This document shows positions 16 through 56,015 of a DNA stretch of 64,000 nucleotides, piece by piece; position 1 is the stretch's first letter, and each line of letters starts with the position of its first letter. The position numbers and the translations under genes were made by a program. The notes beneath the pieces were generated by a model. It worked only from the letters and a program-made list of their open reading frames with translations. It made no database searches and was not told where the DNA came from. This DNA is from a virus: the IMG/VR virus record IMGVR_UViG_3300045972_000138, positions 127,513-191,512 of that record. One strand, written 5' to 3'.

Positions 16-273
16 ATGGCAAATAAATTATCAGACGCAAATTTAATTAGATTAAAACAACTCGTAAACGATGGTGTTCAAGTCCTACAAGAATGTGAAG
101 ACCTACGTACAGGACTAAGTGAAACAGTAAAAGCAATTGCTGAGGAACTAGAAGTTAAACCTGCTCAATTAAACAAAGTTATTAAGATTGCACATAAGTC
201 TAATCTAAATCAAGTTGAAGCAGACTTCGATGAAGTAAAGAGTATGTTGGATCAATTGGGGCGTGGCATCTAA
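16..273 (+). CDS. hypothetical small protein (85 aa)
   Basis: ORF with AGGAG RBS at 6-10 upstream of ATG 16. Confidence 0.55.
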   Translation: MANKLSDANLIRLKQLVNDGVQVLQECEDLRTGLSETVKAIAEELEVKPAQLNKVIKIAHKSNLNQVEADFDEVKSMLDQLGRGI

Positions 274-2663: not shown

Positions 2664-5558
2664 GTGGTCGAACGTGTAAACGGTAAACGTGTTTACAAAG
2701 AATATCCGCCCGACTATCATTTCTATTTAAGCGATCCAAAAGGTACGAGCAAATCTATTTACGGTAATCCTGTAAAGAAAATTGTGCCACGTACCTTTGT
2801 TGAAAAACAAAAGATACTTAAAACACTATCGCACAACACAACAAAATGGGAGAGCGACGTTGATCCTATTTTTAGATGTTTCGAGCAAAACTATTCATCA
2901 GGTGAAGCACCTGTACTGAACGTAGCGTTCTTCGACATTGAAACCAGCTTTGACAAAGAGAAAGGCTGGTCTGAAGCAAGCGAAGCAAACAATTATATAA
3001 CTTCAATATCTGTTCACTTACAGTGGCTAGACGAAATCATATGTTTGGCCGTACCACCCGATACACTAACCTGGGACGAAGCACAAGCAATCGCAGCCGA
3101 AGTTGGGAACACTGTACTATTTGAAAAAGAATCGGAAATGCTTAATGCGTTTATCGATGTTATCGAAGATGCAGATGCACTAAGCGGCTGGAATAGCGAA
3201 GCATACGATATTCCGTATACAGTAAACAGAATTAAAAAAGTTCTAGGTAAACACGAAGCTAGACGCTTATGTTTGTGGGAACAGGAGCCTAAAAAGCGCG
3301 AATTTGAGCGTGGTGGCAAGACATCTGAGACATACGATCTATTGGGCAGAATACACATAGATTATATGCAAATTTATAAGAAGTATAACTATGAAGAACG
3401 ACACAGTTATGCACTTAACGCAATTGCAGAAGCAGAATTAGGCGAAACTAAGGTTGCGTATGAAGGTACACTTGATGAACTTTATAATGATGACTTCAAG
3501 ACATTCTTAGAATACAACATCCAGGATACACGACTACTTGATCAATTAGACAAGAAGTTGCAGTTTATTGACTTAGCTAATTCTATTGCGCATTCATCTT
3601 GCGTATCTATTCAGACAACAATGGGCGCGGTTGCAGTTACAGACCAAAACGTCTTAATGGAAGCACACGGTAGAAACCTTGTATGCCCGGATAAGAAGCA
3701 CAGCAAGGAAAGCGAAGCAAATAGAGCAGCAGGTGCGTGGGTTGCAACACCTAAGAAGGGATTCCACAAATGGATTGGGTCAACTGACATGAAGTCACTG
3801 TATCCATCTGTTATTCGTGCGCTGAATATGAGTCCGGAAACTATTGTAGGACAGATTACCCTGACACGAACGAACGATGCAATTAGAGCGTGGGAAGCTA
3901 AAGGCAGCAAATACACATTTGCATCTTGGTGGAACGACAGATTTAATGTGTTAGAAATGGAAGAGTTTTACGCAAATGATATTGGCACAAAACTTACATT
4001 AGAAATGGAAGATGGTAATGTATTTGAACTTACAGGTGCAGAACTACGTGAGCTAATTTTCAACGGTAACCAGCCTTGGTGCATTAGTGCGAACGGTACT
4101 ATATTCAGGACAGACATAGATGGTGTTATTCCGTCGCTGTTGTCGCGTTGGTATAGTGAACGTAAGATACTTCAAGGTATTATGACTAACTATCAAGATA
4201 TTGAAGACAATCCCAAAATCGAAGGTACAAAAGTCCCAGCAGATATGTTTACGGAAGCTGATATACTAGATGCAGAAATTAGAGCAAATCCGTACTCCGA
4301 ACACGATGCTTATAGACCTAAGAAGCTAAAGGAATTAATAGCCGAAGGTAATAATAAGCGTGTAGTGCAATATATGAACCAGCACGGTCTAACAGTTAAA
4401 GACGGCAAGGCAATTGCTAGAGATCAAAAGACATTAAAGAGTATTGTTGGCTTTTGGGATAAACGTCAACTTGTTAAGAAAATTAACTTGAACTCTGCAT
4501 ATGGTGCGTTGTTGAATGCTGGTAGTCGATTCTTTGATCAACGTTTAGGTCAATCAACAACGTTAACAGGTCGTACTATTACGCGACATATGGCATCTAA
4601 GACAAACGAAATGATTGATGGTGAGTACAATCATTACGGAAGGACTATTATTTATGGTGATACTGACTCTTGCTATTTTAGTGCATATCCTGTTCTAAAG
4701 GAAGAAATTGATAGGGGAGATATCTTGTGGACAAAGGAAAGTATTATTGATTTGTATAACGATCTTGCTAAGGCAGTATCTGCAACATTCCCGGAATTCT
4801 TGTTAACTACATTAAATGTGCCGTTAAAGAAATCTACAGGTGTTATTGCAAGTTCGCGTGAAACAGTTTCCGAAAGTGGTATCTGGATGGTTAAGAAGCG
4901 TTATGCTTGTTTAATGTACGATAAGGATGGTATTAGATTAGATGCAGCAGGCAAGGTAGGTAAAGTTAAGGCTATGGGCCTAGATTTGAAGCGTGCTGAT
5001 ACTCCTAAGTTTGTGCAAAAATTCTTATCCGAAATCTTAATGGATGCACTTACAGACAAAGGTGAGAACTTTATTATTGATAAGATTCGTAAATTCAAAC
5101 AACAATTTGAAGATATGAAACCGTGGCAACAGGGTACTCCGCGAGCAGTTAATAATTTAACTCGTTACAGAGAGAAAATTGAATTAGCTGCAATGAAAAA
5201 GCTCAAAGGCGAAGATATGGGCAACTTGCACGTTCCTGGTCACGTTAGCGCAAGTTTGGCATGGAATAGATTGCGCGATATAAACAACGATCAGCACGCA
5301 ATGCGTATTATCGACGGTCAGAAAATTATTGTTTGTAAATTAAAAGACACAGTAGAAAACCGTACATCTAGCATTGCATATCCAGTCGACGAATTGCACT
5401 TACCAGAATGGTTCTTAAGATTACCATTTGATAGCGAAGGTATGCAGGATGGCATTGTCGATAAGAAGATTGAGAACTTATTAGGTGTTCTAAAATGGGA
5501 TCTTAGCAGAACCCAAAAAGAGCACGAGCACTTAGAAACATTATTCAGCTTCGCTTGA
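2664..5558 (+). CDS. family B DNA polymerase with 3'-5' exonuclease domain
   Basis: Exo I FFDIETSF, Exo II YNIQDTRLL; pol motif A DMKSLYPSVI, motif B KKINLNSAYG, motif C IYGDTDS; GTG start, true start uncertain. Confidence 0.9.
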   Translation: MVERVNGKRVYKEYPPDYHFYLSDPKGTSKSIYGNPVKKIVPRTFVEKQKILKTLSHNTTKWESDVDPIFRCFEQNYSSGEAPVLNVAFFDIETSFDKEKGWSEASEANNYITSISVHLQWLDEIICLAVPPDTLTWDEAQAIAAEVGNTVLFEKESEMLNAFIDVIEDADALSGWNSEAYDIPYTVNRIKKVLGKHEARRLCLWEQEPKKREFERGGKTSETYDLLGRIHIDYMQIYKKYNYEERHSYALNAIAEAELGETKVAYEGTLDELYNDDFKTFLEYNIQDTRLLDQLDKKLQFIDLANSIAHSSCVSIQTTMGAVAVTDQNVLMEAHGRNLVCPDKKHSKESEANRAAGAWVATPKKGFHKWIGSTDMKSLYPSVIRALNMSPETIVGQITLTRTNDAIRAWEAKGSKYTFASWWNDRFNVLEMEEFYANDIGTKLTLEMEDGNVFELTGAELRELIFNGNQPWCISANGTIFRTDIDGVIPSLLSRWYSERKILQGIMTNYQDIEDNPKIEGTKVPADMFTEADILDAEIRANPYSEHDAYRPKKLKELIAEGNNKRVVQYMNQHGLTVKDGKAIARDQKTLKSIVGFWDKRQLVKKINLNSAYGALLNAGSRFFDQRLGQSTTLTGRTITRHMASKTNEMIDGEYNHYGRTIIYGDTDSCYFSAYPVLKEEIDRGDILWTKESIIDLYNDLAKAVSATFPEFLLTTLNVPLKKSTGVIASSRETVSESGIWMVKKRYACLMYDKDGIRLDAAGKVGKVKAMGLDLKRADTPKFVQKFLSEILMDALTDKGENFIIDKIRKFKQQFEDMKPWQQGTPRAVNNLTRYREKIELAAMKKLKGEDMGNLHVPGHVSASLAWNRLRDINNDQHAMRIIDGQKIIVCKLKDTVENRTSSIAYPVDELHLPEWFLRLPFDSEGMQDGIVDKKIENLLGVLKWDLSRTQKEHEHLETLFSFA

Positions 5559-5563
5559 AGCTG

Positions 5564-5592: not shown

Positions 5593-5612
5593 ACTTTATA
5601 TAGGAGATTTTT

Positions 5613-6628: not shown

Positions 6629-6641
6629 ATCTAAATACAAT

Positions 6642-9878: not shown

Positions 9879-9892
9879 ATTAAGGAAATGAA

Positions 9893-11071
9893 ATGAGAAA
9901 ATTGTACTATATGGGTTTAGAGTCTTATGAAGCTCGTTACACTCTACAACTGCAGGATTGGAACGAACGTGTATTCCAGGAGCGTGGCATAGAATACGAA
10001 CTCATCACAGGTTCCGAATTATCAACTGATAAAAAGATTGTAACAGGCAGTGTGCTCGATGCACATGGTCGTACTTATTACAGTATGATGCAACATGCGA
10101 ATCTTATCAAGGCAATGAAAGAAGGTAAGGTAACAAGCAAGGATGTAATCTTCTACGAAGATATGTTTACGCCCGGTATCGAAAGCTTACCATACATTTT
10201 AGAGCAAGTACCTAAGAAATTTCGTCCAAAGGTGTATGTGCGTTGCCTGGCACAAAGTATTGATCCAGACGACTTTGTTAATCGCGAAGGTATGGCACAC
10301 TGGATGCGTAAGTTCGAACAAATGGTTGACGAGTTTGTTGATGGAATTTTAGTCGCAAGCGAAGAAATGGTTGCACACTTGCGTATTGCAGGAATGAACG
10401 CACCTATCTATGTAACAGGATTACCATTTGGTAAAGAAGAAGTTGCAAGTCGTGTTCCGTATGTTAAACCTATTCATCAACGCGAACGCCGTGTGGGTTT
10501 TGCTGCACGCTGGGACGACGAAAAGCAACCGGAATTCTTTATGCAATTGGCACAACGCTTTTATAAGACACGCCCGGATGTCGAATTTGCAGTGTTCTGT
10601 GGTCACCCAGAACTCAAAAGCAATAACAAACAGCACGTCGAAATGGCACGCTATTTGGAAAACAGCGATACAGCAAACTTCAAAGTGTACACTGGTTTGA
10701 AGAAAAATGATTACTATGAATTGCTTGCAGACAGTACCGTTTTATTTAACTGTGCATTGCAAGACTGGGTAAGTAACACAGTTAGCGAAGCAGACACATT
10801 TGGCACACTTACATTGTATCCAGCATACAGAAGCTTTCCAGAAGTTTTTGCTAACAATGCAAACAATATGTACATTCCGTGGAGCATTAAAGATGCCGCA
10901 GACAGATTAGAAAAGATGTTTGCTAATCCTACAAGTTACACAACAGGCAATGTGAGTGACTGGCAAGATGGTACAATCGGCCGCACACTGGATGTATTCG
11001 AAGGTAAAGGCGAAGAATGGGCTCGCAATACACATGATTATAGAAAACACGTAGCAAAGGCAAAATATTAA
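9893..11071 (+). CDS. putative glycosyltransferase (GT-B-like)
   Basis: 392 aa; RVGFAARWDDEKQPEFF and C-terminal E-rich GT-B-like segments; assignment by weak motif similarity only. Confidence 0.35.
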   Translation: MRKLYYMGLESYEARYTLQLQDWNERVFQERGIEYELITGSELSTDKKIVTGSVLDAHGRTYYSMMQHANLIKAMKEGKVTSKDVIFYEDMFTPGIESLPYILEQVPKKFRPKVYVRCLAQSIDPDDFVNREGMAHWMRKFEQMVDEFVDGILVASEEMVAHLRIAGMNAPIYVTGLPFGKEEVASRVPYVKPIHQRERRVGFAARWDDEKQPEFFMQLAQRFYKTRPDVEFAVFCGHPELKSNNKQHVEMARYLENSDTANFKVYTGLKKNDYYELLADSTVLFNCALQDWVSNTVSEADTFGTLTLYPAYRSFPEVFANNANNMYIPWSIKDAADRLEKMFANPTSYTTGNVSDWQDGTIGRTLDVFEGKGEEWARNTHDYRKHVAKAKY

Positions 11072-15278: not shown

Positions 15279-15500
15279 ATGAACGAACGAATTAACGAAC
15301 TCGTCGGGCAGGCAAAGTTTATGGCAGAAGAAAGCACAAATAAGAAAATTTCTGCCAACACTGAATTGTATATGTTTGCTGAAAAGTTCGCTGAGTTGAT
15401 TATTAGGGAATGTCGTGTTACAATGAGTGAGAACTTTCACGAATGCAGGACTGCATCTCTAATGGATAAAGTAATCAAAGAACACTTTGGAGTTAAGTAA
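15279..15500 (+). CDS. small protein, paralog family (C-terminal HFGVK)
   Basis: MNERINEL...IIREC...EHFGVK. Confidence 0.6.
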   Translation: MNERINELVGQAKFMAEESTNKKISANTELYMFAEKFAELIIRECRVTMSENFHECRTASLMDKVIKEHFGVK

Positions 15501-16381
15501 TGTTCGGAACTAATGAAATTATCGGTAAGAAGTATTTTAAGGATGCACCTGCAGACAGCTTGTTTGTAACAAGTATGTTCTTCACACTCCAAGGAGAAGG
15601 CCCGTATGCTGGGCAACCTGCATTGTTCATCCGCCTGGCAAAGTGCAATTTAGATTGCTCATTCTGCGACACATTCTTTGACGATGGCGATTGGATGACG
15701 TTTGACGAGATTGACGAAAAGATTGAAGAAACTATCGAAGCCTACTGGACTAACAAAGGGCAAGAAGTACCTCAGTGGGCAGTTAATACCACACCTGGCG
15801 TTAAGGCAAATCCTGGTATCGTGCTTGTAATGACCGGCGGCGAGCCGCTATTGCAAGATAACATCTCTGCGTTTATGCAACAGCAACTTCAGTACTTCAA
15901 AGCGGTGCAAGTCGAAAGCAATGGTATTTTAGATACAGAAATTCCGCGTCTTGTTACTCTTGTATGCAGCCCAAAGTGCATGGAGAAAGACGGCAAAGCT
16001 GTAAAGTATTTTAGACCAAGCAAAACTATTCTCGAAGTAGCAGATTGTTTAAAGTTTGTAATGAGTGCAGACGTAGATAGTCCATACAATAATGTGCCGG
16101 ATTGGGCGCACGAATGGAAGCGGAATACAGGCAAAGAAATCTATTGCAGCCCAATGAATATTTATAATAGCCTGCCACAGAAGATTAAACTCATTCGTGC
16201 CGATAATGGTAAGATCACAATGGCAGAGCGTAGTACAGTCGATGAAGTGATTGACTTCTGGGAGCCAGGCGTTCTTAATTTAAAAGAGAATGAACTTAAC
16301 CATAAGTATACAGCACGTTACTGTATGGATCATGGATTCAAACTTAACTTGCAAATGCATTTGTACGCAGGATTATCTTAA
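15500..16381 (+). CDS. queE: 7-carboxy-7-deazaguanine synthase QueE (radical SAM)
   Basis: FFTLQGEGPYAGQPALFIRLAKCNLDCSFCDT matches QueE N-terminal cluster-binding block; MTGGEPLL; C-terminal CMDHGFKLNLQMHLYAGLS resembles E. coli QueE tail. Confidence 0.85.
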   Translation: MFGTNEIIGKKYFKDAPADSLFVTSMFFTLQGEGPYAGQPALFIRLAKCNLDCSFCDTFFDDGDWMTFDEIDEKIEETIEAYWTNKGQEVPQWAVNTTPGVKANPGIVLVMTGGEPLLQDNISAFMQQQLQYFKAVQVESNGILDTEIPRLVTLVCSPKCMEKDGKAVKYFRPSKTILEVADCLKFVMSADVDSPYNNVPDWAHEWKRNTGKEIYCSPMNIYNSLPQKIKLIRADNGKITMAERSTVDEVIDFWEPGVLNLKENELNHKYTARYCMDHGFKLNLQMHLYAGLS

Positions 16382-27226: not shown

Positions 27227-28330
27227 ATGGCAGCAGCAATTGATACAACCCGCACAGAACGCCCGCGCGACATTCGTACACTCGTTATTCGTTGTATGAA
27301 GGTTGGTCGTCCTCCGATGATCTGGGGACCTCCTGGCATCGGCAAGAGTGAACTGATTGCAGAAATTGGTGTGGAAATGAATCGCCCTGTTATCGATATG
27401 CGTTTGCTGTTGCTGGAACCTACTGACATCAAGGGTATTCCGTATTTCGATCCCGAAACCAAAACAATGAAGTGGGCACAACCTGCAGACTTGCCTACTG
27501 AGTTGAGCCTGAACAACGCAATTTTGTTCTTGGACGAAATCAATGCTGCACCTCCTAGCGTGCAGGCAGCAGCATATCAACTTATCCTTAACCGTCGCGT
27601 TGGTGAATATCGTTTGCCCGCAGGTGTTAGCATGATTTGCGCTGGTAACCGTGAAAGCGATAAGGGTGTTACTTACCGTATGCCAAGTCCGCTTGCTAAT
27701 CGTTTGGTCCACTTTGAAATGGCTTGCAACTTCGAAGACTGGCAAAAATGGGCTATTGCAAACCACGAACATGCTGACGTTGTTGGTTTCCTGAGCCACC
27801 ACAAGCACAAGCTCTTCAACTTTGATAGCAAGTCTCCCGACAAGGCATTCGCTACACCACGTAGCTGGCACTTTGTTAGCGAACTTATCGTCGATGATGG
27901 CTCGCTTACTGAATCGCTCAACACTACATTGGTGGCAGGTTCGGTTGGTGATGGCCTTGCAACAGAGTTCAGCCAACACCGTAAGGTTGCTTCCAAGATG
28001 CCTAAATCCGAAGATGTGCTGTTGGGCAAGGAAACTCAACTCAATGTCAAAGACTTGAGCGCAATGTACTCGCTTACCATCTCTATGTGCTACACACTCC
28101 AAGAATGGGTTGCACGCTCCAAGACTAAGGAAGATGGTTTTGATGTTGCTAAGTGGCATGAATGTGTTGATCACTTCTTCAAGTTCATGATGGCTAACTT
28201 CCAAACTGAAATGATCGTGCTTGGTGCTAAGACTGCACTGCGTGATTACCAACTGCCAATCAATCACCGTCAACTCAAAGAGTTCAAGGGCTTCCATGAC
28301 AAGTACGGTAAGTACATTCTGGAAGATTAA
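27227..28330 (+). CDS. MoxR-family AAA+ ATPase
   Basis: Walker A GPPGIGKS; Walker B LFLDEINAA; 367 aa. Confidence 0.8.
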   Translation: MAAAIDTTRTERPRDIRTLVIRCMKVGRPPMIWGPPGIGKSELIAEIGVEMNRPVIDMRLLLLEPTDIKGIPYFDPETKTMKWAQPADLPTELSLNNAILFLDEINAAPPSVQAAAYQLILNRRVGEYRLPAGVSMICAGNRESDKGVTYRMPSPLANRLVHFEMACNFEDWQKWAIANHEHADVVGFLSHHKHKLFNFDSKSPDKAFATPRSWHFVSELIVDDGSLTESLNTTLVAGSVGDGLATEFSQHRKVASKMPKSEDVLLGKETQLNVKDLSAMYSLTISMCYTLQEWVARSKTKEDGFDVAKWHECVDHFFKFMMANFQTEMIVLGAKTALRDYQLPINHRQLKEFKGFHDKYGKYILED

Positions 28331-33814: not shown

Positions 33815-33817
33815 TTG

Positions 33818-33846
33818 TTGACTGCCCCTAAGGCCCGTGTTACAAT
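33818..33846 (+). promoter_or_regulatory. sigma70-like promoter TTGACT-N17-TACAAT
   Basis: upstream of rtcB ATG 33884 with AAGG RBS. Confidence 0.5.
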
Positions 33847-33883
33847 AATATGTAACGCGGGCTTTATTCTATTTAAGGTATAT

Positions 33884-35077
33884 ATGGAAATCAATAATGT
33901 AAAAATGTGGGTAGGTGATATGGAAGTTGAAGAAGCTGCTATTCAGCAGATTATGAATATTTCCCAATTGCCTATTCTTGCCGGACATATGGCTATTATG
34001 CCAGACGTTCATATGGGCAAGGGTGCAACAGTTGGTTCTGTTATTCCTACACGTTCCGCTATTATTCCTGCCGCAGTAGGTGTGGATATTGGTTGCGGTA
34101 TGATTGCTGCAATGACAAACCTTAAGGCAGAAGATCTTCCAACATCATTGTTCTCCTTGCGTAATGCAATTGAACGTGATGTACCTGTAGGCTTCAACGA
34201 GCACGACAAGGGTATCCCTTCTGTGTCGGGTCCTTATGCAGATATCCTGCGTAAGAATCTACGCAAGACAATGGATGACTTCGATACACTAACATTGAAG
34301 AAGAATTTGGGTCGTGCTGACGAAAAGAAGATTGCACGCCAGATTGGTACGCTAGGTGGCGGTAACCACTTTATCGAAATTTGTCTTGATACACAAAATC
34401 GTGTGTGGATTATGCTGCACTCTGGATCACGTGGCATCGGTAACCAAATTGGTACAGTTGCAATTGAACTGGCAAAGGAACAGGCTGCAAAGCGTGCATG
34501 GGGTCTCCCAGATCAGGATCTTGCTTGGTTGGATGAAGGCACACCGGAATTCGAAGCCTACATTGAAGCTATGCATTGGGCGCAGGATTATGCACGTTTC
34601 AATCGCGACACAATGATGAACTTGGTTGTGGCAGCAATGCTGCGTAAGTTTCCTACAATGAAGATTTTGGGCGAAGTGGTAAACTGCCATCACAACTTTA
34701 CAAGCCTGGAAGAACACTTTGGTACAAAGATGTGGATTACTCGTAAGGGTGCTGTATCTGCTAAACAAGGGCAAATGGGTATTATTCCTGGTTCGATGGG
34801 TGCTAAGTCGTTTATTGTGCAAGGCAAGGGTAATCACGATTCGTACTGCTCTTGCTCACACGGCGCAGGCCGCAAAATGAGCCGTAATCAGGCGAAAAAA
34901 CTGTTCGACGTTGCAGCTATGGAAGCGCAGACGCAAGGCATCGAGTGCCGCAAGGACTCGGGTGTTATTGACGAGATTCCTGCAGCATACAAAGACATCG
35001 ATCAAGTTATGGCAGCACAATCTGAATTGGTTGATGTAGTGCATACGCTGAAGCAGGTGCTCTGCGTTAAAGGTTAA
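33884..35077 (+). CDS. rtcB: RNA-splicing ligase RtcB
   Basis: VKMW...MPDVHMGKGATVGSVIPT...AAVGVDIGCGM, GGGNHFIEI, CSCSHGAGRKMSR; start at internal ATG 33884. Confidence 0.9.
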   Translation: MEINNVKMWVGDMEVEEAAIQQIMNISQLPILAGHMAIMPDVHMGKGATVGSVIPTRSAIIPAAVGVDIGCGMIAAMTNLKAEDLPTSLFSLRNAIERDVPVGFNEHDKGIPSVSGPYADILRKNLRKTMDDFDTLTLKKNLGRADEKKIARQIGTLGGGNHFIEICLDTQNRVWIMLHSGSRGIGNQIGTVAIELAKEQAAKRAWGLPDQDLAWLDEGTPEFEAYIEAMHWAQDYARFNRDTMMNLVVAAMLRKFPTMKILGEVVNCHHNFTSLEEHFGTKMWITRKGAVSAKQGQMGIIPGSMGAKSFIVQGKGNHDSYCSCSHGAGRKMSRNQAKKLFDVAAMEAQTQGIECRKDSGVIDEIPAAYKDIDQVMAAQSELVDVVHTLKQVLCVKG

Positions 35078-35532: not shown

Positions 35533-36732
35533 ATGGCCATTGATACATCGCCCGAAGCAGTGCTAGAACAACTAACTCGCGCACGAATTTCTTTGTTGTT
35601 GCAACAACCTTTCTGGGGCACACTTGCAACACGTCTTATTTTGAAAGACGCCACTGAAGAAGATTGGTGCCCAACAGCGGCAACAAACGGCAGATACTTT
35701 TACTACAATCGTAATTTTATCTCCAAACTCAACAAGCAAGAATGCATCTTCCTTGTAGCGCACGAAGTTGAACACTGTGTTTACGATCACATGGATCGTC
35801 GTGGTGGTCGTGCAGCAAAACGCTGGAATGCAGCAGCAGACTACGTTATCAATTATGAACTGCATGAATACAACATTGGTAAGATTCCAGATCCAAAGAC
35901 ATCTGGTGTACAGGCCTGCTTTGATCCAAAGTACAAAGGAATGTTTGCTGAAGAAGTATACGAACAACTTACAGACGATCAAAAGTTTCCAGAGTTCGAT
36001 GTTCACCTGGAGCCAGGTGATGGCAAGGGTGATCCGATGTCGGAAGACGAACAGCGCGAATTGAGCGATGAAATCCGTAATGCCGTTATGCAGGCAGCAA
36101 AGAGCGCAGGTGCTGGCAAGGTTCCTGCAGGTGTGCGTCGTATGCTCAAGGATCTTACCGAACCACAAATGGATTGGCGTGAAATCTTGAATATGAAGAT
36201 TCAATCTATGGTTAAGAGCGACTTTACCTGGGATCGTTGCTCGCGTAAGATGCAGAGCACTGGTATCTATTTGCCATCAACAAAGAATGACTTCAAGGCT
36301 CGTGCAGCAGTAGCAATCGATGCATCCGGATCTATGGGCGATAATATGTTGCGTGATTTGCTTGGCGAAACCAAAGGCATCATGGAACAGTTCAACGATT
36401 TTGAACTTGATGTGTGGACATTTGATACAAAGGTATACAACCCTGTACGTTTCACACCCGACAATATTGATGAAATCGATACATACGATATTAAGGGCGG
36501 CGGTGGTACTGACTTTGATGTCAACTTTGCTTACATGAAGGAAGCTGGGTTGGAACCAGAACGCTTTATTATGATGACAGACGGATACCCTTGCGGTAGC
36601 TGGGGCGACGAATTTTACTGCGATACATTGTTCCTTATCCACGGTGACCCACATCACAAGTTAGTTGCACCGTTTGGTATGACAGCATGGTACGAACCAG
36701 ATAGTCATTCACCGCAAAACAAGAAGAAATAA
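35533..36732 (+). CDS. VWA-domain protein with N-terminal HExxH metallopeptidase-like domain
   Basis: VAHEVEHCVYDH; MIDAS motif AIDASGSMGD; probable partner of MoxR ATPase. Confidence 0.7.
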   Translation: MAIDTSPEAVLEQLTRARISLLLQQPFWGTLATRLILKDATEEDWCPTAATNGRYFYYNRNFISKLNKQECIFLVAHEVEHCVYDHMDRRGGRAAKRWNAAADYVINYELHEYNIGKIPDPKTSGVQACFDPKYKGMFAEEVYEQLTDDQKFPEFDVHLEPGDGKGDPMSEDEQRELSDEIRNAVMQAAKSAGAGKVPAGVRRMLKDLTEPQMDWREILNMKIQSMVKSDFTWDRCSRKMQSTGIYLPSTKNDFKARAAVAIDASGSMGDNMLRDLLGETKGIMEQFNDFELDVWTFDTKVYNPVRFTPDNIDEIDTYDIKGGGGTDFDVNFAYMKEAGLEPERFIMMTDGYPCGSWGDEFYCDTLFLIHGDPHHKLVAPFGMTAWYEPDSHSPQNKKK

Positions 36733-37037: not shown

Positions 37038-37310
37038 ATGTATCAAACCTCATTATTTTTTAGAATAAAAAACAGTAGCACGGCATTTGAAAAGTACCGT
37101 ATTATTGAGTACTTCTTTAAATATTGGGTAGACGATACCTGCAACAATGAAGTTGATTACAGTGTAGAATCTGTATCAACTGCCAGCATAGATTCACGTA
37201 AGCTAGAAGAATTAGTTAGAGTGGATTTCGAACACATTGAAGATGCAGTCGCTATAAAGCTAAAAGGTGTCCCACGAGAATACCAACCATATATTGAAAT
37301 AGTAGGTTGA
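37038..37310 (+). CDS. hypothetical protein (90 aa)
   Basis: ORF. Confidence 0.45.
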   Translation: MYQTSLFFRIKNSSTAFEKYRIIEYFFKYWVDDTCNNEVDYSVESVSTASIDSRKLEELVRVDFEHIEDAVAIKLKGVPREYQPYIEIVG

Positions 37311-37335
37311 CCTACTATGTCTATGGTTATATAAT
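37307..37335 (+). promoter_or_regulatory. sigma70-like promoter TTGACC-N17-TATAAT
   Basis: upstream of 37367. Confidence 0.45.
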
Positions 37336-37366
37336 AACAACAAATAGACTTAACCAATAAATTATT

Positions 37367-37987
37367 ATGTCAGATGTACTACTATTAAACGCAGATGGAA
37401 TGCCATTGTCGTCGATCCCACTTTCAGTGGTGAATTGGCAAGTGGCTGTACGACTTCTTGTAACTGACAAGGTTAAAATCTTGAAAGAATACGATGACTG
37501 GGTTGTAAGATCTCAACACCTAGAAATGAAGGTGCCGTCTATCGTCATTATGTCTGAGCAAGTAAAGTGGGCAAAGACACTAAAATATAGCCGAAATAAC
37601 GTCTATTTACGTGATGATTTTACGTGTCAGCTACAAAGTACGAACCGTTGTGCCGACGCACACGGAAAAGGTCATCCTGTTGCTGAATTGACATTAGACC
37701 ACGTTGTTCCTAAGTCCCATGGTGGTAAGACATCCTGGACAAACGTTGTTACCTGCTGCAAGTCTTGTAACAGCGAAAAGGGTAACGACCATACTATTGT
37801 TCCTAAGAAGGTTCCAGTGAAGCCAACGTACTACCAGATACTGGCCAAACGTAAGACATTACCAATTAGTGTTAAAGACCCGGATTGGAAGTTTTACATA
37901 CAGTGGCCAGAACATCTTGTTACGGTAGTAGATCACCGAGCAGGTGCTCAGCCAAGTCTACTTGATGACGAATCAATAGACATTTAA
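37367..37987 (+). CDS. HNH endonuclease
   Basis: LDHVVPKSHGGKTSWTNVVTCCKSCNSEKGN. Confidence 0.8.
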   Translation: MSDVLLLNADGMPLSSIPLSVVNWQVAVRLLVTDKVKILKEYDDWVVRSQHLEMKVPSIVIMSEQVKWAKTLKYSRNNVYLRDDFTCQLQSTNRCADAHGKGHPVAELTLDHVVPKSHGGKTSWTNVVTCCKSCNSEKGNDHTIVPKKVPVKPTYYQILAKRKTLPISVKDPDWKFYIQWPEHLVTVVDHRAGAQPSLLDDESIDI

Positions 37988-38012
37988 AAAAAGCCCCGCA
38001 AGGGGCTTTTTT
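37986..38012. terminator. bidirectional rho-independent terminator
   Basis: AAAAAAGCCCC-gcaa-GGGGCTTTTTT between convergent HNH and iscA. Confidence 0.8.
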
Positions 38013-38331
38013 ATATCCGGAAACTTTCTCCACACCCACATCGGTCGCGCTCATTAGGATTATTGAATTTAAATCCTTCATTCAACCCTTCGCGTACATA
38101 GTCTATCTCCATTCCCTGTAGGTATGCACAGCTCTTTGGATCAACAAATAGTTTACATTCTTTGCAATCTATACACAGATCTTCATCTTGTGCTGCATCT
38201 ACATATTCTAGTACATATGCGAGCCCACTACATCCTGTAGTTTTAACACCCAATCTTATACCTGTCCCTTTGCCACGCTTTACAATTACCTGCTGAATTT
38301 TCCTTGCTGCCTTATCAGTTAGTGTCAGCAT
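38011..38331 (-). CDS. iscA: A-type Fe-S cluster carrier IscA
   Basis: LGVKTTGCSGLAYVLEYVD and C-terminal CGCGESF; close to enterobacterial IscA. Confidence 0.85.
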   Translation of the reverse strand: MLTLTDKAARKIQQVIVKRGKGTGIRLGVKTTGCSGLAYVLEYVDAAQDEDLCIDCKECKLFVDPKSCAYLQGMEIDYVREGLNEGFKFNNPNERDRCGCGESFRI

Positions 38332-38701
38332 GTTTTGCCCTATAATCCGCTACAGCAGCCTTGATAGCATCTTCTGCCAAAATCGAGCAATGAATCTTAA
38401 CGGGTGGAAGTGCAAGTTCTTCGGCAATTTCACTGTTCTTAAGACTTCCTGCTTGATCAAGTGTTTTTCCTTTAACCCATTCTGTGACGAGCGATGAACT
38501 AGCAATAGCGGATCCGCATCCGTATGTTTTGAATTTTGCATCTTGAATTACTCCATTAACTACTTTAATTTGTAGTTTCATTACGTCGCCACACGCAGGC
38601 GCGCCGACCATGCCTGTGCCTACGTCTTCATCTCCCTTATCAAAGGAGCCCACGTTACGTGGATTTTCATAGTGATCTATAACTTGTTGTGAATATGCCA
38701 T
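38315..38701 (-). CDS. iscU: Fe-S cluster scaffold IscU
   Basis: MAYSQQVIDHYENPRNVGSF, GAPACGDVMKLQI, KTYGCGSAIASSSLVTEWVKGK, PPVKIHCSILAEDAIKAA; near-identical pattern to E. coli IscU. Confidence 0.9.
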   Translation of the reverse strand: MAYSQQVIDHYENPRNVGSFDKGDEDVGTGMVGAPACGDVMKLQIKVVNGVIQDAKFKTYGCGSAIASSSLVTEWVKGKTLDQAGSLKNSEIAEELALPPVKIHCSILAEDAIKAAVADYRAKHADTN

Positions 38702-38768
38702 AATAGTTTACCTTTTTACTCTACTATTTATCACAAATTTTTATAGTTAACTACAGTTTTATAAATAT

Positions 38769-39239
38769 TTGATGGACTATACAAAAATATACAATAATAT
38801 TATACATCGTGCTCAGAATAGAATCTTAGAAGGGTATATTGAGAAACACCATATTATACCAAAGTGCCTTGGTGGCAACAACGATATAATTAACCTGGTT
38901 GCACTTACACCGGAAGAGCATTATCTCTGCCATCTTATATTAGTAAAAATTCATCCTTCTAACCGTAAAATATTACACGCGGCTAAAATGATGAGTGGCC
39001 AAGGTAATAATAAAAAATACGGCTGGATTAAGAGGCGAATTTCTAAATTAGGATTTAGCGATGAACATAAAGCAAATATGTCCAAAGCACAATTCGAAAG
39101 AGCAAAAATCTATAAAAGAGAAACAACCTTAGAACAAATGCAAGAAAGATGGGCCAAGAATGCAATAAAAAGGGAAGAGAAGAAAACAAATGCTATTATA
39201 ACAGCACTTATATATGCAGTTTCTGTAAAATCGTTGTAA
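38769..39239 (+). CDS. HNH-family homing-endonuclease-like protein
   Basis: EKHHIIPKCLGGNNDIINLVALTPEEHYLCH; paralog of 63075-63770. Confidence 0.6.
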   Translation: MMDYTKIYNNIIHRAQNRILEGYIEKHHIIPKCLGGNNDIINLVALTPEEHYLCHLILVKIHPSNRKILHAAKMMSGQGNNKKYGWIKRRISKLGFSDEHKANMSKAQFERAKIYKRETTLEQMQERWAKNAIKREEKKTNAIITALIYAVSVKSL

Positions 39240-39332
39240 AAAATGACCAATATTATGGGCGAAAATCTATATAAGATATAAATATGTGCGTATAGAATCA
39301 CTCTTACACCATTTAACAAAACGGAGATTATA

Positions 39333-39617
39333 ATGGCAAAAGCAAAGAAGACCCCAGCAGCAGAAGCAGTAGTTACACCAGAAGCTGAAGCGCAAACAAC
39401 AACATCTATTGAGCCAGTGCAATTAACTATTGCCGACTTGCAACTATTGGGTCGTATTATCGACTTGGCATCGCGCCGTGGTGCATTCCAGGCTAATGAA
39501 TTGTCACAAGTTGGTGATGCATTTAACAAGCTATCAGGCTTTTTAGCATATGTCGAAAGTGTCCAGTCCAAGGAAGCAGAAGCAGTAGCTGAAGAAGAAA
39601 CAGCAGACGCAGAATAA
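39333..39617 (+). CDS. hypothetical acidic protein (94 aa)
   Basis: RBS ACGGAGA. Confidence 0.55.
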   Translation: MAKAKKTPAAEAVVTPEAEAQTTTSIEPVQLTIADLQLLGRIIDLASRRGAFQANELSQVGDAFNKLSGFLAYVESVQSKEAEAVAEEETADAE

Positions 39618-39642
39618 ACAAAGGGGATAATCCCCTTTGTTT
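39618..39642 (+). terminator. rho-independent terminator
   Basis: AAAGGGGAtaaTCCCCTTTG then TTTCC. Confidence 0.6.
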
Positions 39643-39660
39643 CCTTAAGGAGACACTAAC

Positions 39661-40541: not shown

Positions 40542-40874
40542 ATGACTAAGAAAGTAACAAACATTAGTGTCGATAAGGCGTTGAGTAGAATTGCGAAGCC
40601 ATCAGTCTTTGATCGAATAGTAAAAGAGATTGATGCTAAGGAAATTCCCGCAAAATATGTTCAGCAGATTTTAGTTCAATACTACGACGGTAATATTGTT
40701 GAGTTACATGGTAATGAAATAACGCACCCTATTCCAATGAATAAGGATGCACCGTGGGATAAGATATCAGAATCATTTAAGAAAATGAGAGATGTTAAAG
40801 TTTTTATTAACGTTGATGTGCTCGAAGAAGATATAAATGAACTAGTTGAAAAATACCTTGGTGCTTATTGTTAA
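40542..40874 (+). CDS. hypothetical protein (110 aa)
   Basis: RBS AGGGAGA. Confidence 0.55.
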   Translation: MTKKVTNISVDKALSRIAKPSVFDRIVKEIDAKEIPAKYVQQILVQYYDGNIVELHGNEITHPIPMNKDAPWDKISESFKKMRDVKVFINVDVLEEDINELVEKYLGAYC

Positions 40875-41935
40875 CTACTAAATTTTAATTCTAACCAATT
40901 ATAATCATTGATCAACCCGAGCATATCGGGTTGATCCTTATGTGCTCGGCCAAATTTGGCACCTGCAATAGCACCCTCGATTGCAAATTCTCCAAACTCT
41001 CTATCTGCACCTTTTGTGCACCAGGTATTCAATCTTTCTTCTGTTTCGGTATCTACGCCATTTGTTATAATTTTAGAAGCCAGTTTAGCACATTCCCTAA
41101 ATCCACTACGCCATGCAGAAAACGGATCTGTATTGAATTTGGTTATATTGCTTACTTCGGGCATCACTTTAAAGTGTTTAGAAACACTTGTTGTAAAGTC
41201 AATAGGTGAGCCGTTGTATTCTAGTAACATCTTACGCGGAAATAACTTAACACCACCATATCCGTATATTAAGTCGTTAATGGGATTCTTTGAATTCCAT
41301 ACATGTACTGTGTTTATATTGTAGGCATCGGGGTAGTAATCGAAGTTGAATAGTAGTTCTATTTCAGCATCGGCATCTACTACATAAAACACATCTGTTT
41401 CTGCTTTAGATGCTGCAACCTTATGAGCCTCGTAAATTCCATTCACACCATTCACACGCTTGGCCTGTGGAAATTTATTTTTAAGTTTGCCAAAATTATA
41501 GTCAGCAAATGCTTCGTTATAACTTAGAAATACAATATCAATTTTAGGATATGCAAATATAGATTCAGATATTACCTTAAGTTTTACGTTACCGGCTGCA
41601 ACATTATCGTCACTATATAAATTAGGATTCTCTAACACTAATTCTTTATTGTATAATCTTACAGATAAGTCGTTGTTCCATATATGTAGATATTCTTTAT
41701 CCCACACTGGTGGCTTAAAGCTAAAATTAAAGGAAGTAAATAATAACTCTCTATCGGCGTTTATAACATAAAAGAAATCTGTTGTAGATTTCTTAGCAAG
41801 ATTATATAAATCACTGCCCGTAAGATTAGATTGCTCAACCTTAATAATCGAATTAACAAACATGTTCTTGTTCATTGATTCAGCCATAGGTTTAGTAATT
41901 TCGGTATATGTAATAAAGATATGTTGTGCCATACT
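40871..41935 (-). CDS. hypothetical protein with internal tandem duplication
   Basis: long minus ORF; start placed at internal MAQHIF; two similar ~30-aa segments FYVINADRELLFTSFNFSFKPPVWDKEYLHIWN / FYVVDADAEIELLFNFDYYPDAYNINTVHVWN. Confidence 0.5.
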   Translation of the reverse strand, partial: SMAQHIFITYTEITKPMAESMNKNMFVNSIIKVEQSNLTGSDLYNLAKKSTTDFFYVINADRELLFTSFNFSFKPPVWDKEYLHIWNNDLSVRLYNKELVLENPNLYSDDNVAAGNVKLKVISESIFAYPKIDIVFLSYNEAFADYNFGKLKNKFPQAKRVNGVNGIYEAHKVAASKAETDVFYVVDADAEIELLFNFDYYPDAYNINTVHVWNSKNPINDLIYGYGGVKLFPRKMLLEYNGSPIDFTTSVSKHFKVMPEVSNITKFNTDPFSAWRSGFRECAKLASKIITNGVDTETEERLNTWCTKGADREFGEFAIEGAIAGAKFGRAHKDQPDMLGLINDYNWLELKFSS

Positions 41936-41953
41936 GTATTTATGCAGGGTTAT

Positions 41954-41982
41954 TTGACAAAAATAATTATTGGTTGTATACT
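41954..41982 (+). promoter_or_regulatory. sigma70 promoter TTGACA-N17-TATACT, -10 ends 6 nt before ATG 41989 (leaderless?)
   Basis: hexamers and spacing. Confidence 0.4.
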
Positions 41983-41988
41983 GGTGAT

Positions 41989-42264
41989 ATGAATGAGTAC
42001 GTTTATGTTGAGTTCCTTTTCGATATGCCCGATTCACTAATAGGGTCTGTTGAATTGCGAAAGCTTGGCGATGATTTTCAGTTGATAGATACGAGCGAGG
42101 AATTCGATCACGGTGGTGCATACCACACCGGCCAACGATATTGCGGGAAGATAAGTGCTGAAGCAGCAACAATGATTAAACTTAGTAATCCATTCTTGGC
42201 CGAACATATGCATATTTCTTATATCTCCACACAGTTGAAAGACAAATACAGAACTGATAAATAG
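41989..42264 (+). CDS. hypothetical protein
   Basis: internal ATG of ORF 41926-42264; divergent from minus gene. Confidence 0.35.
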   Translation: MNEYVYVEFLFDMPDSLIGSVELRKLGDDFQLIDTSEEFDHGGAYHTGQRYCGKISAEAATMIKLSNPFLAEHMHISYISTQLKDKYRTDK

Positions 42265-47676: not shown

Positions 47677-47925
47677 CGTGATAAATAATAGTGCGTATAA
47701 TGCATTAAAAGGATAAATATGGACACAATTGAACACATACAACTTTTGATTGCAGAATTATGGACCAATTGGGATTTTGTGGCACCCGTGCTAGTCCCTA
47801 TTGCATATTTTCTTAACTAATAACCCTGGCGTTCGTTCAACGGATAGGACATCTTTCTTCTAAAGAGATAATAGTGGTTCGATTCCACTACGCCGGACCA
47901 ATTTTTAAACCACCAAGGACTTAAA

Positions 47926-48153: not shown

Positions 48154-48354
48154 GTGAACGACTTAGTTACGCTGAAAAACATTCTAGCCGTTTTAATTGA
48201 AAACGGCGTACACAACGAAGTAACACAGCTCGATAATGCTGTGCTCTTCGAGGGTGTTCCGCAGAATGTAATATACAAGGATGATTTGGTTGCAGCAGGT
48301 GCAACTTATGATTCAAACTTCGAAGCCTGGATGTTTTGGGGCAACGAAGAGTAA
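48154..48354 (+). CDS. hypothetical protein (66 aa)
   Basis: ORF. Confidence 0.45.
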   Translation: MNDLVTLKNILAVLIENGVHNEVTQLDNAVLFEGVPQNVIYKDDLVAAGATYDSNFEAWMFWGNEE

Positions 48355-48398
48355 AGCACGCAACTCTGATAAATAACATTATTGGAGTCGAATGCTTT

Positions 48399-48956
48399 AT
48401 GATATGTGAACATTGTTTAAAAGAATATACAAATAAATCCGGATATTCTAACCACATCAGGCGCTGCCCATCTAACCCGAATCGGGTAATGGAGACAATG
48501 TCCCCCGAAGGTCGACTTAAAATAAGTAAGTCATCAACCGATTACAATAAGATAAAGTGGGCAGATCCTGTTATACGAGCAAAACACAAGCAGTCAATGA
48601 AAGATGCCGTAAAGAATAATCCAGATTCTTACACATCATCTAATCGTGGAAGAACTAAACAAATAATTGTTGATGGTATTAAATTACAAGGGCAATGGGA
48701 AGTAGATTTTTATAATTGGGCAAAAGAAAAAGGATTGAGCCCAGAAAGACCAACTATAGCATTTAAGTATGAGTGGAATGGTGAAAGATTTTATCATCCA
48801 GATTTTTATATACCATCACTAGATTTATACGTAGAAGTGAAGGGTTATGAAACAGATAGGGATAGAGCAAAATGGTCGCAATTTCCGGGTAAGTTGCGTA
48901 TAATAAAAGCTGCAGAGATAAAACAGATTAGGCAAGGGTGCTTTGAGCGAGTTTAG
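48399..48956 (+). CDS. putative endonuclease: N-terminal zinc finger plus PD-(D/E)xK-like C-terminus
   Basis: CEHC...CP Zn finger; DFYIP...LYVEVKG resembles PD-(D/E)xK core; overlaps tRNA-Met start by 10 nt. Confidence 0.45.
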   Translation: MICEHCLKEYTNKSGYSNHIRRCPSNPNRVMETMSPEGRLKISKSSTDYNKIKWADPVIRAKHKQSMKDAVKNNPDSYTSSNRGRTKQIIVDGIKLQGQWEVDFYNWAKEKGLSPERPTIAFKYEWNGERFYHPDFYIPSLDLYVEVKGYETDRDRAKWSQFPGKLRIIKAAEIKQIRQGCFERV

Positions 48957-49021
48957 CATAAAGGTAGTGCCGAGAACTCATAATTCTTAAGGTCCGGGTT
49001 CGATCCCCGGGGCTCGCACCA
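48947..49021 (+). tRNA. tRNA-Met (anticodon CAT; elongator or Ile-lysidine type), CCA encoded
   Basis: Hand-folded cloverleaf: acceptor GCGAGTT/GGCTCGC, U8, D-loop GG, anticodon loop CTCATAA, T-arm CCGGG-TTCGATC-CCCGG, G1-C72. Confidence 0.75.
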
Positions 49022-54596: not shown

Positions 54597-56015
54597 ATGA
54601 CATACCAACTTATTAAAGAAATCGCATCTGATAACTCCAAGCTTCACAAGGAAGCAGTTATCAAGCGCGAAGCACTTGCAAACAATAGCGATTTCTTTGC
54701 AGGCCTGCGCTATGCACTGGACAATATCGACACCTTCGGTGTTAAGAAGGTTCCAGAACGCAGTGGGCCCGACGGCCCTGGGTTGCCGTTTATTGGATTT
54801 GCTGCATTAGCGAACCAACTCATTGAACGCAATATTACTGGCGGCGCTGCATTGGATGCAATTGAAAAAGGTATGCGTCTTGCAACCAACGATGAGTGGA
54901 ATGGCTGGTATCGTCTCATTCTGATTAAAGATTTGAAGGCAGGCTTCTCCGAGAGTACTGTTAACAAGGCAATCAAAGATACCCACCCGCAATGGGTAAT
55001 TCCAACTACGCCGTATATGCGCTGCACATTGCCAGCCAAGTCCAACATGGAAGACTGGGATTGGAGCAAAGGTATTTACAGCCAAACCAAGGCCGATGGT
55101 ATGTTTGCTAATGTGAACATCCGTCAAGATGGTTACTTGTGGGTTACTAGCCGTGGTGGTACATTGTTTCCACCCGGTAGCCTGGGCATCGAAGATCAGC
55201 TTGTCGCAGTGTTCGATAAGGGCACACAGACGCACGGCGAACTTACTGTCTATATCGATGGTGTGTTGCAAGCTCGCGAAATCGGCAATGGTATCTTCAA
55301 CAGTCTGCTTAAAGGCGGATCGTTGGAAGCAAACCAGAAGGTGCATTACGATTGCTGGGATCAGATTCCAATTGCCAAAGCACTACCTAAGGGCAAGTAC
55401 GAGATTGGATACGAAAAGCGGTTTACTGTTTTAAAGATTCAGGTTGATACTGCAAAGAAAGATTCAGTAACTGCACACTTGGATCCAATTGAGCTTACCG
55501 AAACGCGCATTGTGTTCTCTATGTCTGAAGCTGTAGTGCATTACAAGGAACACCGTGCTCGCAAGTTGGAAGGCACAATCCTTAAGGCACCTACTACAAT
55601 TTGGAAGGATGGCACATCCAAAGACCAAGTTAAGATGAAGGAAGAGATTGACGTTGAGTTGAAGGTAATTGGCTTCAATCCTGGCAAGGGCAAGAATGCA
55701 AACACATTTGGTTCTATCCAGTGTGCAAGCGAATGCGACTTGCTGGAAGTAAATGTGTCTGGTATGAGCGATGATATGCGTGCTGCTATCCACGCAGACC
55801 GTCTGAACTGGCCCGGTAAGATTATTACTGGTCGTTCCAACTCGCTGCTGGCTCCAAGCAAAGGTAAGAAGAATGGTAAGTGGTCTCTGTTCCTCCCGCG
55901 CTTGATTGAAGAGCGTATGGACAAGACTGTTGCCGATACATTGGAACAGATCCAAGCTCAGTTTGCTGCTGCTGAAGCTGCTGTTAAATCTACCGAAGAG
56001 GATAGCGAAGAATGA
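54597..56015 (+). CDS. ATP-dependent polynucleotide ligase (DNA ligase-like)
   Basis: motif I TKADGMF (KxDG), motif III HGELTVYIDG, motif IV EGTILK; 472 aa; DNA vs RNA substrate not resolved. Confidence 0.65.
   Translation: MTYQLIKEIASDNSKLHKEAVIKREALANNSDFFAGLRYALDNIDTFGVKKVPERSGPDGPGLPFIGFAALANQLIERNITGGAALDAIEKGMRLATNDEWNGWYRLILIKDLKAGFSESTVNKAIKDTHPQWVIPTTPYMRCTLPAKSNMEDWDWSKGIYSQTKADGMFANVNIRQDGYLWVTSRGGTLFPPGSLGIEDQLVAVFDKGTQTHGELTVYIDGVLQAREIGNGIFNSLLKGGSLEANQKVHYDCWDQIPIAKALPKGKYEIGYEKRFTVLKIQVDTAKKDSVTAHLDPIELTETRIVFSMSEAVVHYKEHRARKLEGTILKAPTTIWKDGTSKDQVKMKEEIDVELKVIGFNPGKGKNANTFGSIQCASECDLLEVNVSGMSDDMRAAIHADRLNWPGKIITGRSNSLLAPSKGKKNGKWSLFLPRLIEERMDKTVADTLEQIQAQFAAAEAAVKSTEEDSEE

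Follow-up and report, generated by a model that had tools for sequence, protein, structure and literature searches.

Phage-borne iscU genes and genes for A-type iron-sulfur (Fe-S) carriers are, as a class, already known, having been described since 2011–2017. Nishimura et al. (2017, PMC5332604) reported viral iscU and A-type carriers (sufA, iscA or erpA) from marine viromes, in complete environmental viral genomes, and found them to co-occur with radical S-adenosylmethionine (SAM) genes in marine T4-like genomes; for their first identification, that paper cites Sharon et al. (2011) together with another earlier study (its reference 15). Viral Fe-S auxiliary genes have also been described for HMO-2011-type phages (PMC9038755), and PHROGs already files the IscU family (PHROG 8429) as an auxiliary metabolic gene. 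Here we analyse a stretch of 64,000 nt, hereafter the window (positions 127,513 to 191,512 of IMG/VR record IMGVR_UViG_3300045972_000138, with all coordinates below counted from its first letter), which carries an iscU-iscA pair, iscUA, on its minus strand. We propose that iscUA probably serves a T4-like jumbo phage as an auxiliary metabolic cassette of two genes, and that the phage's own copies of IscU and IscA would top up the Fe-S supply using host enzymes.

The locus shares several traits with the Fe-S genes of the marine viromes: the same two families are involved, they are found in tailed and often T4-like phages, they are patchily distributed among close relatives, the remaining iron-sulfur cluster (ISC) machinery is absent, and radical SAM genes lie alongside. 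It departs from them in that the window belongs to a jumbo-phage lineage, in that the nearest cellular homologues are from the Burkholderiales rather than from marine Gammaproteobacteria or SAR86, and in having an overlapping iscU-iscA pair at an insertion site unique to its lineage. Compared with the bacterial iscRSUA-hscBA-fdx operon, as found in Escherichia coli and the Burkholderiales, the pair has IscU and IscA proteins of orthologue grade, the same U-A order, the same ligands and the LPPVK motif; unlike the operon, the window is without iscR, iscS, hscB, hscA and fdx, its two genes overlap by 17 nt where those of bacteria are spaced, its codon usage is AT-rich and phage-like, and its IscA has four extra cysteines. 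Among 50,697 GenBank phage records, one genuine phage, C48C1 (OQ984149, filed under Kyanoviridae), had a close IscU, and none had a close IscA. The C48C1 gene, annotated as NifU-like/IscU and 75% identical, lies among the replication genes of that phage; unlike the gene in the window, it has no adjacent IscA match and shares the strand of its neighbours, and C48C1 is not closely related to the window phage.

Intact iscU and iscA genes within a viral genome

Both genes are intact and full length, and they were found exactly where the earlier sequence-only reading of this DNA had placed them: iscU, encoding the Fe-S cluster assembly scaffold (128 amino acids), at 38315..38701 and iscA, encoding the A-type Fe-S carrier (106 amino acids), at 38011..38331, both on the minus strand. 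Both proteins score above the curated cut-offs of their families. IscU reaches 219 bits against NCBIfam TIGR01999 (cut-off 192.4) and 175 bits against Pfam NifU_N (cut-off 22), and its PHROG match is PHROG 8429, ‘NifU-like Fe-S cluster assembly protein’; IscA reaches 156.5 bits against TIGR02011 (cut-off 150.6) and 76 bits against Fe-S_biosyn (cut-off 26.3). The peptide blocks that had been quoted for the two proteins are all present in the translations. The same reading had called the proteins almost residue-for-residue enterobacterial, which is fair for IscU, at 81% identity to the E. coli structure 2l4x (101/124) and 82% to the Haemophilus influenzae structure 1q48, but overstated for IscA, which is 55% identical to the E. 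coli structure 1s98 (58/105) and, with 143.5 bits, stays below the cut-off of 181 of the enterobacterial-type model NF007049.

All the cluster ligands are kept in the phage IscU (C37, C62 and C105, with D39 and H104), which is one residue shorter than its E. coli counterpart, a deletion that shifts the numbering (Asp39 and His105 in E. coli); LPPVK, the motif recognised by the HscA chaperone, is at residues 98–102. The canonical IscA triad (C35, C99 and C101, with CGCG near the C-terminus) corresponds to C34, C98 and C100 here and is invariant in the alignment. An AlphaFold2 (AF2) model of IscA, with a predicted local distance difference test score of 84, was matched by Foldseek to E. coli 1r94 (E 6.7e-13, template-modelling scores 0.83/0.90, root-mean-square deviation 1.6 Å), and the protein is accordingly modelled with the canonical IscA/SufA fold. 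The two proteins keep every residue needed for building and holding a cluster. The 3′ end of iscU, with its TGA stop, and the ATG of iscA overlap by 17 nt (38315..38331, minus strand, read from the sequence); this suggests translational coupling and a pair that behaves as a single unit, and an identical 17-nt overlap is found in the related loci L084, L181 and L187.

The pair is embedded in a viral genome, flanked by viral genes on either side, and is neither an artefact nor a recent capture, because both flanks are syntenic with 45 viral contigs, a second assembly agrees and the composition is phage-like. Across 20,387 nt (window positions 28315–48701), a stretch that includes both cassette junctions, the window shows 100% identity to a Logan assembly of run SRR35489184. 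The GC contents of iscU (0.43) and iscA (0.405) are those of large phage genes (0.42 ± 0.04). Comparison of codon usage with the phage core, as the sequence-only reading had proposed, gave phage-like GC contents at third codon positions (GC3) of 0.31 for iscU and 0.29 for iscA (phage, 0.37 ± 0.06), unlike those of the nearest bacterial iscU and iscA genes, from the Burkholderiales, whose median is about 0.79. The cassette shares no more than 74.5% nucleotide homology with any other locus, and this similarity does not extend past the gene borders, 38010–38711. Against five viral homologues, the non-synonymous divergence (dN) is 0.06–0.18 and the synonymous divergence (dS) is saturated, giving a dN/dS ratio of about 0.05 or lower; strong purifying selection has thus maintained the pair in many phages. 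A chimeric assembly including host DNA, a possibility raised at the outset, is excluded by the second assembly, the phage-like GC3 and this low ratio.

On its gene content the window belongs to an uncultured T4-like jumbo phage. Its DNA polymerase is of T4-type family B (PHROG 262), with best matches in sequenced phages to a PA5oct-like polymerase (55% over 69% of the length) and to those of Atu_ph07 and Phosso (about 42% over the full length). An identical IscA occurs on a 237,609-bp JGI contig, and related IMG/VR contigs reach 385 kb.

Whilst the genes had been taken as enterobacterial in character and as a clue to the host, the Burkholderiales are closer. The best 80 matches of a one-genome-per-species scan came only from Burkholderiales-type bacteria (Acidovorax, Rhodoferax, Limnohabitans, Comamonas, Variovorax and others), many of them pond and lake metagenome-assembled genomes; the scan patterns favoured betaproteobacterial IscA, so that these are the best found and not an exhaustive set. 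Their IscU proteins are 79–90% identical to that of the window (median 86.5%; best 89.8%, Limnohabitans sp. JirII-31) and their IscA proteins 64–70%, against 81% and 55% for E. coli. These values point to a betaproteobacterial-type origin of iscUA. As a guide to the host, however, they are weak: in trees built by neighbour joining, without bootstrap, all 77 unique viral IscAs fall into a single clade that is separate from the 78 Burkholderiales sequences, the viral IscUs mostly cluster together, and the window genes group with these other viral copies. The genes have been evolving in phages for a long time and tell little of the present host.

The insertion site and the spread of the module among phages

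On one side, the pair adjoins a plus-strand gene for an HNH-domain protein of 206 amino acids (37367..37987; Pfam HNH_5 and HNH, PHROG 16726). The HNH gene has the same position in 45 related contigs, at 58–79% identity, and is a conserved syntenic gene of the lineage, neither a sporadic element nor part of the cassette. A predicted bidirectional intrinsic terminator, the hairpin A7-GCCCC-GCAA-GGGGC-T6 at 37987..38012, is common to this gene and to minus-strand iscA; it folds at −17.1 kcal/mol on the plus strand and −19.8 kcal/mol on the minus strand (z about −4), and a consensus terminator scanner gave no call for it. In relatives without the cassette, a hairpin is at the same place, directly after the HNH gene, so the terminator is older than the insertion. 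On the other side, a divergent AT-rich intergenic region of 70 bp (38702..38771) separates iscU from a plus-strand, free-standing homing-endonuclease gene (38772..39239; 155 amino acids from its ATG; PHROG 655, E 1.7e-44), whose product covers only the N-terminal half of the PHROG 655 profile (positions 27–179 of 343).

The window shares with 45 IMG/VR contigs a syntenic block that runs DUF2201 – o92 – o90 – HNH (206 amino acids) – 94-amino-acid gene – o269 – o110 – o433 (minus strand) – o128 – peptidase S11, and most of its proteins are 40–88% identical to those of the window. In all 45 contigs, the interval from the HNH gene to the 94-amino-acid gene is free of iscU and iscA. The endonuclease gene is sporadic, being present in nine of the 45, where it may precede or follow the HNH gene and point either way, and its homologues also lie between dsbA and the DNA polymerase gene in other relatives. 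Where the HNH and endonuclease genes are adjacent (L201 and L208) they are 73 nt apart, versus 784 nt in the window, and homology with the relatives breaks at about 37956 and 38762. The empty slot in all 45 relatives, the difference in spacing and the older hairpin together indicate that iscUA is an insertion of about 0.7 kb, in opposite orientation, with a pre-existing terminator on one side and the promoter region of a mobile endonuclease gene on the other. The sequence-only reading had seen here an accessory-gene slot between a bidirectional terminator and a homing endonuclease, and this description holds: the hairpin folds on both strands, the neighbour matches PHROG 655 and the slot is variable. 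Its view of a phage otherwise coded on the plus strand is mostly correct, with at least one conserved minus-strand gene (40871..42172) as an exception. The homing endonuclease was considered as the carrier of iscUA and rejected, since its homologues occupy the same slot without the pair and so would not have brought it. The arrangement resembles morons and the endonuclease slots of T4-like phages in being a small, oppositely oriented unit between a terminator and the next promoter, variably present among relatives, and like those T4-like slots it also takes up mobile endonuclease genes; unlike morons, the terminator already existed at the site, and no promoter of its own was found by our scans.

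With regard to transcription, iscU has a Shine–Dalgarno sequence, AAGG, at plus-strand coordinates 38711–38714, 9 nt ahead of its ATG, and the T4 late-promoter consensus TATAAATA lies at 38760–38767 on the plus strand, just before the endonuclease gene. The consensus is not enriched across the window (4 matches versus 5.9 expected); three of the four matches (38760, 39277 and 40512, all plus strand) are just upstream of the consecutive plus-strand genes at 38772, 39333 and 40542. A sigma-70 scan gave fewer sites than shuffled sequences, with none convincing within the spacer upstream of iscU (38702..38771).

In phages whose polymerase is 76–88% identical to that of the window, Fe-S genes are usually found at another place, just upstream of dsbA and the DNA polymerase gene. 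Among the 75 loci with enough upstream sequence, drawn from two collections with some redundancy, this slot held IscU alone in 18, IscA alone in 3, both in 2, ErpA in 1 and no Fe-S gene in 51. Locus L084 has iscU-iscA-erpA upstream of dsbA, and the closest relatives of the window phage by DsbA and polymerase (L302/L322 and L298) have ErpA there. The window begins 15 nt before dsbA, and the corresponding slot of the window phage lies outside the 64 kb covered; within the window, no ErpA was found. Searches for the DNA ahead of the window gave 0 matches to an exact 60-nt sequence among metagenome contigs, a contig of only 1.5 kb for the DsbA protein, and, in a metagenome scan with DsbA, a best match of 93%, which was not the source contig.

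Viral iscU is widespread in the environment, with at least 598 IscU-like stretches in IMG/VR. In 78 of the 85 fetched IMG/VR loci that have both genes, iscU precedes iscA on a single strand, with overlapping or abutting genes in 57 of the 78; an ErpA-like gene is additionally present in 12 loci. The make-up of the module was examined in 104 environmental loci with viral-type iscU or iscA, of which 97 were IMG/VR or GenBank phage loci and seven metagenome-assembly contigs. IscS, IscR, HscB and Fdx were found in none of the 104 (tblastn, E ≤ 1e-5), and four had a distant Hsp70-like gene several kilobases away, at about 40% identity to HscA, whereas each ISC partner was found in 66–79 of the 80 Burkholderiales loci used for comparison. 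In the window, tblastn gave no match to IscS, ferredoxin, HscB/HscA or IscR even at E ≤ 1. The lack of IscS, IscR, HscB and Fdx in the viral loci argues that the phage supplies only a scaffold and a carrier, and would have to use host enzymes. The pair had been called unusual for a phage, which is true only among deposited GenBank phage records; the IMG/VR stretches, PHROG 8429 and the published viral cases all speak otherwise. A megablast search of 37300–39700 against the 50,697 GenBank records gave zero matches. Matches to IscU and IscA under the name ‘Acinetobacter phage MD-2021a’ were rejected as bacterial iscRSUA-hscBA-fdx contigs filed as phage: CAKLQH020000011.1 has a complete iscR-iscS-iscU-iscA-hscB-hscA-fdx operon among housekeeping genes, and CAKLQF020000009.1, with the same iscU and iscA matches, looks like a bacterial contig.

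Several related loci show mobile elements or decay at iscU. In L082 (about 9620–10017), whose IscA is the closest to that of the window (92% identical), a frameshift directly behind GAPACG breaks iscU in two, with products of 39 and of 98 to 107 amino acids in genes of this type, while IscA is intact. Close to this module are a radical SAM gene, tRNA genes and a GIY-YIG-like gene. In L083 (IMG/VR contig 3300045971_000163, 1988–3382, plus strand), the IscU open reading frame (ORF) has 465 amino acids and contains an insertion of 337 amino acids, which starts ‘CFISNAL...’ and ends ‘...GSHN’ right before ‘CGSAIASSS’, exactly at the cluster ligand Cys63. Pfam splits its NifU_N domain into two stretches and matches to the Hint module are sub-threshold; the insertion is probably an intein. 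In L181 (a 393-kb ENA contig, 5006–7438), the order is nrdA – NUMOD3 endonuclease – iscU – iscA – nrdB – glutaredoxin. In T4, the mobE endonuclease occupies this nrdA/nrdB slot.

Elsewhere, the window encodes Phage_DsbA, RtcB, an ATP-dependent DNA ligase and a MoxR-like AAA protein paired with a DUF2201 protein. The RtcB RNA ligase gene is at 33815..35077, and four tRNA genes lie on the plus strand: Arg-TCT (47826–47900), Met-CAT (48947–49021), Leu-TAA (51277–51363) and Thr-TGT (51519–51593). The MoxR-like AAA ATPase and the DUF2201 (VWA/metallopeptidase-like) protein are encoded at 27227..28330 and 35533..36732 (plus strand); the DUF2201 gene is conserved, at 74–82%, across dozens of jumbo-phage contigs, two of which have two copies. 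An ORF of 739 amino acids with a PKD domain (317..2536, plus strand) separates dsbA (16..273) from the DNA polymerase gene (2664..5558); in relatives, these two genes are about 55 nt apart or split only by a homing-endonuclease homologue. The ORF is a second lineage-specific insertion. For the ORFs 9893..11071 and 54597..56015, look-ups of the exact products found no record.

A cysteine-rich IscA clade in phages

Beside the canonical triad, the IscA of the window has four additional cysteines, C53, C56, C59 and C68 (CxxCxxC-x8-C), at positions where the usual residues are V, S/D/Q, V and L. All four are present in 117 of the 149 closest database proteins, a set made up of the 120 best matches (at least 73% identical) and the members of their 90%-identity clusters. 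In a broader set of 413 unique full-length A-type carriers (Burkholderiales, 50%-identity cluster representatives and viral), 120 have all four (CCCC), 24 lack C53 (-CCC), 11 lack C68 (CCC-) and 16 are intermediate; the other 242 have none, and these include 75 from the Burkholderiales, 109 cluster representatives and 57 other viral proteins. The motif is absent from 80 Burkholderiales IscAs and from all the full-length proteins among the 150 closest 50%-identity cluster representatives, where the only bearers are three fragments, apparently of the same clade as the window IscA. Of the genomic contexts inspected for cysteine-rich IscAs, eight out of eight were phage (the window, L082/L402, L083, L084, L179, L181, L185 and L187), L179 and L181 being contigs of 352 kb and 393 kb. 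No description of this clade was found in PMC5332604, in PMC9038755 or by literature searches.

In the AF2 model, C56 and C59 flank the two-residue turn of a hairpin (52–56/59–63), and C68 ends the next helix. It is tempting to speculate that this IscA clade, so far seen only in phages, might have gained a second cysteine site (C56 and C59, accompanied by C68 and usually C53) for a metal, a second Fe-S cluster or a redox switch, and that the carrier could even be the selected core of the module, although this is a tentative idea only. The carrier rather than IscU is the candidate for such a core, since several relatives have an iscU that is frameshifted or invaded by an intein, or have none, with IscA intact. 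If the idea were true, the second site would give the phage carrier capacity or robustness beyond that of cellular IscA.

Proposed function and rival explanations

In the ISC pathway, IscS provides sulfur and ferredoxin provides electrons, and HscA and HscB recognise the LPPVK motif and release the cluster to A-type carriers. Under the model that we favour, in which iscUA is an auxiliary cassette for Fe-S supply, the phage would add, during infection, further copies of IscU and IscA, the two stoichiometric, cluster-holding parts of this system, and would borrow the catalytic parts from its host: sulfur would come from IscS, electrons from Fdx and cluster release from HscA/HscB, on the assumption that the phage proteins are compatible with the IscS and HscA of the host. 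Once the host could no longer up-regulate its own isc operon, this would raise the capacity for making and delivering clusters, both for phage enzymes and for the host Fe-S enzymes on which replication depends.

A candidate client is the QueE-like radical SAM protein encoded at 15500..16381 on the plus strand (PHROG 2076, E 5e-50; Pfam Radical_SAM, 29.7 bits), which has a Cx3Cx2C motif at residue 49, the presumed [4Fe-4S] site. The sequence-only reading had named QueE, some 22 kb upstream, as the protein to be served. A radical SAM enzyme with the expected motif is indeed there, but its identity as QueE did not stand: scores against the NCBIfam QueE models are 55–70 bits, with cut-offs of 200–300 (best, 70 versus 260), and a scan of five neighbouring ORFs for QueC, QueD or FolE gave no NCBIfam match of any kind. 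We regard the protein as a QueE-like radical SAM enzyme and not as a confirmed QueE, and its link to IscU and IscA as inference only. A second radical SAM candidate, at 48336..48956 (plus strand, 206 amino acids, Cx3Cx2C at residue 20), was rejected, as its matches are to endonuclease/resolvase PHROGs rather than to radical SAM; it may instead be a nuclease with a cysteine cluster. In L082, another radical SAM gene lies 1.5 kb from the Fe-S module.

Several observations weigh against the Fe-S supply model. The module is dispensable, since 51 of 75 relatives are without it at the common dsbA slot and none of the syntenic contigs has it at the slot used here; in the phage with the closest IscA, the iscU frameshift recurs in four assemblies (L402–L405) from different samples and runs. 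Neither the sigma-70 scan nor the TATAAATA search identified a promoter for the pair, and only one Fe-S client, which is not a verified QueE, was found in the 64 kb. Lastly, in E. coli infected by phage lambda, the ISC pathway slows phage growth instead of helping it (PMC3296357).

That last finding bears directly on the main rival to our model, a rerouting of sulfur, in which phage IscU mainly competes for IscS and diverts sulfur from TusA/ThiI-dependent tRNA thiolation or toward Fe-S synthesis, so that the outcome would be altered translation fidelity or frameshifting and not simply a larger Fe-S supply. In E. coli, IscU and TusA compete for IscS in just this way and alter lambda replication via thiolation of tRNA-Lys and programmed frameshifting (PMC3296357). 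Phage IscU comes without IscS and stands alone in 18 of 75 relatives, as a competitor for the host enzyme might; yet in lambda more ISC activity harms the phage, iscU seems here to be coupled in translation to a carrier that has no known role other than cluster transfer, and a decoy gives no explanation for phages that keep only IscA or ErpA or that let iscU decay. We consider this rerouting unlikely. A further rival is that the cysteine-rich IscA is what is selected, with IscU secondary and with a second metal, cluster or redox site that might allow extra cluster storage, oxidation-resistant delivery or iron buffering. The four cysteines occur almost only as a set (120 carriers with all four and 242 with none), are missing from the 80 Burkholderiales IscAs and the full-length closest representatives, are known from phage contexts in all eight cases inspected, and belong to a protein that stays intact where iscU is frameshifted; in the AF2 model, C56 and C59 flank a β-turn in the manner of a CxxC knuckle. 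However, three of the four positions replace buried V, V and L, possibly as neutral hydrophobic substitutions fixed in one clade, and the canonical triad and fold are unchanged. A new carrier function of this kind is also on the unlikely side, if a shade less so than sulfur rerouting.

Less plausible by some way is that iscUA is passive cargo, a selfish or neutral pair moved by neighbouring homing endonucleases without benefit to the phage. The cassette does adjoin a sporadic homing-endonuclease gene, in other phages iscU has NUMOD3 or GIY-YIG endonuclease genes as neighbours or is interrupted by a probable intein, and the position of the cassette varies between related phages. Nevertheless, a dN/dS of about 0.05 or lower over saturated divergence, the conservation of every functional residue, the end of nucleotide homology at the gene borders and the endonuclease homologues in the same slot of relatives without iscUA make such a passenger improbable. 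The least credible alternative is host DNA in the assembly, or a very recent host capture without adaptation to the phage. An IscU that is 81–90% identical to bacterial IscU, on the strand opposite to its neighbours, might bring this to mind, but the second assembly is identical across both junctions, GC3 fits the phage and not the nearest bacteria, nucleotide homology elsewhere is low and confined to the genes with synonymous sites saturated, no isc-operon partner is present, and the viral IscAs are one clade apart from the 78 unique Burkholderiales sequences. We regard this explanation as effectively refuted.

Overall, what is new here is the mapped insertion site together with the alternative slot near dsbA, the consistent absence of the enzyme partners, the cysteine-rich IscA clade in phage contexts only, and the mobile-element traffic around phage iscU, seen in the probable intein of L083 and the recurrent frameshift of the L082 type. 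The work opens no new field, and the clue to the host that it offers (Burkholderiales-like, not enteric) is weak. It does provide a well-resolved genomic example of a class of viral helper genes that has been known chiefly through surveys of marine metagenomes, and the cysteine-rich IscA variant and the intein-bearing IscU are directly testable by Fe-S biochemists. For the biology of these viruses, the locus indicates that, of the ISC machinery, phages acquire the scaffold and carriers alone, the parts that hold the cluster, and never the enzymes, and that Fe-S genes move between defined slots within a single jumbo-phage lineage.

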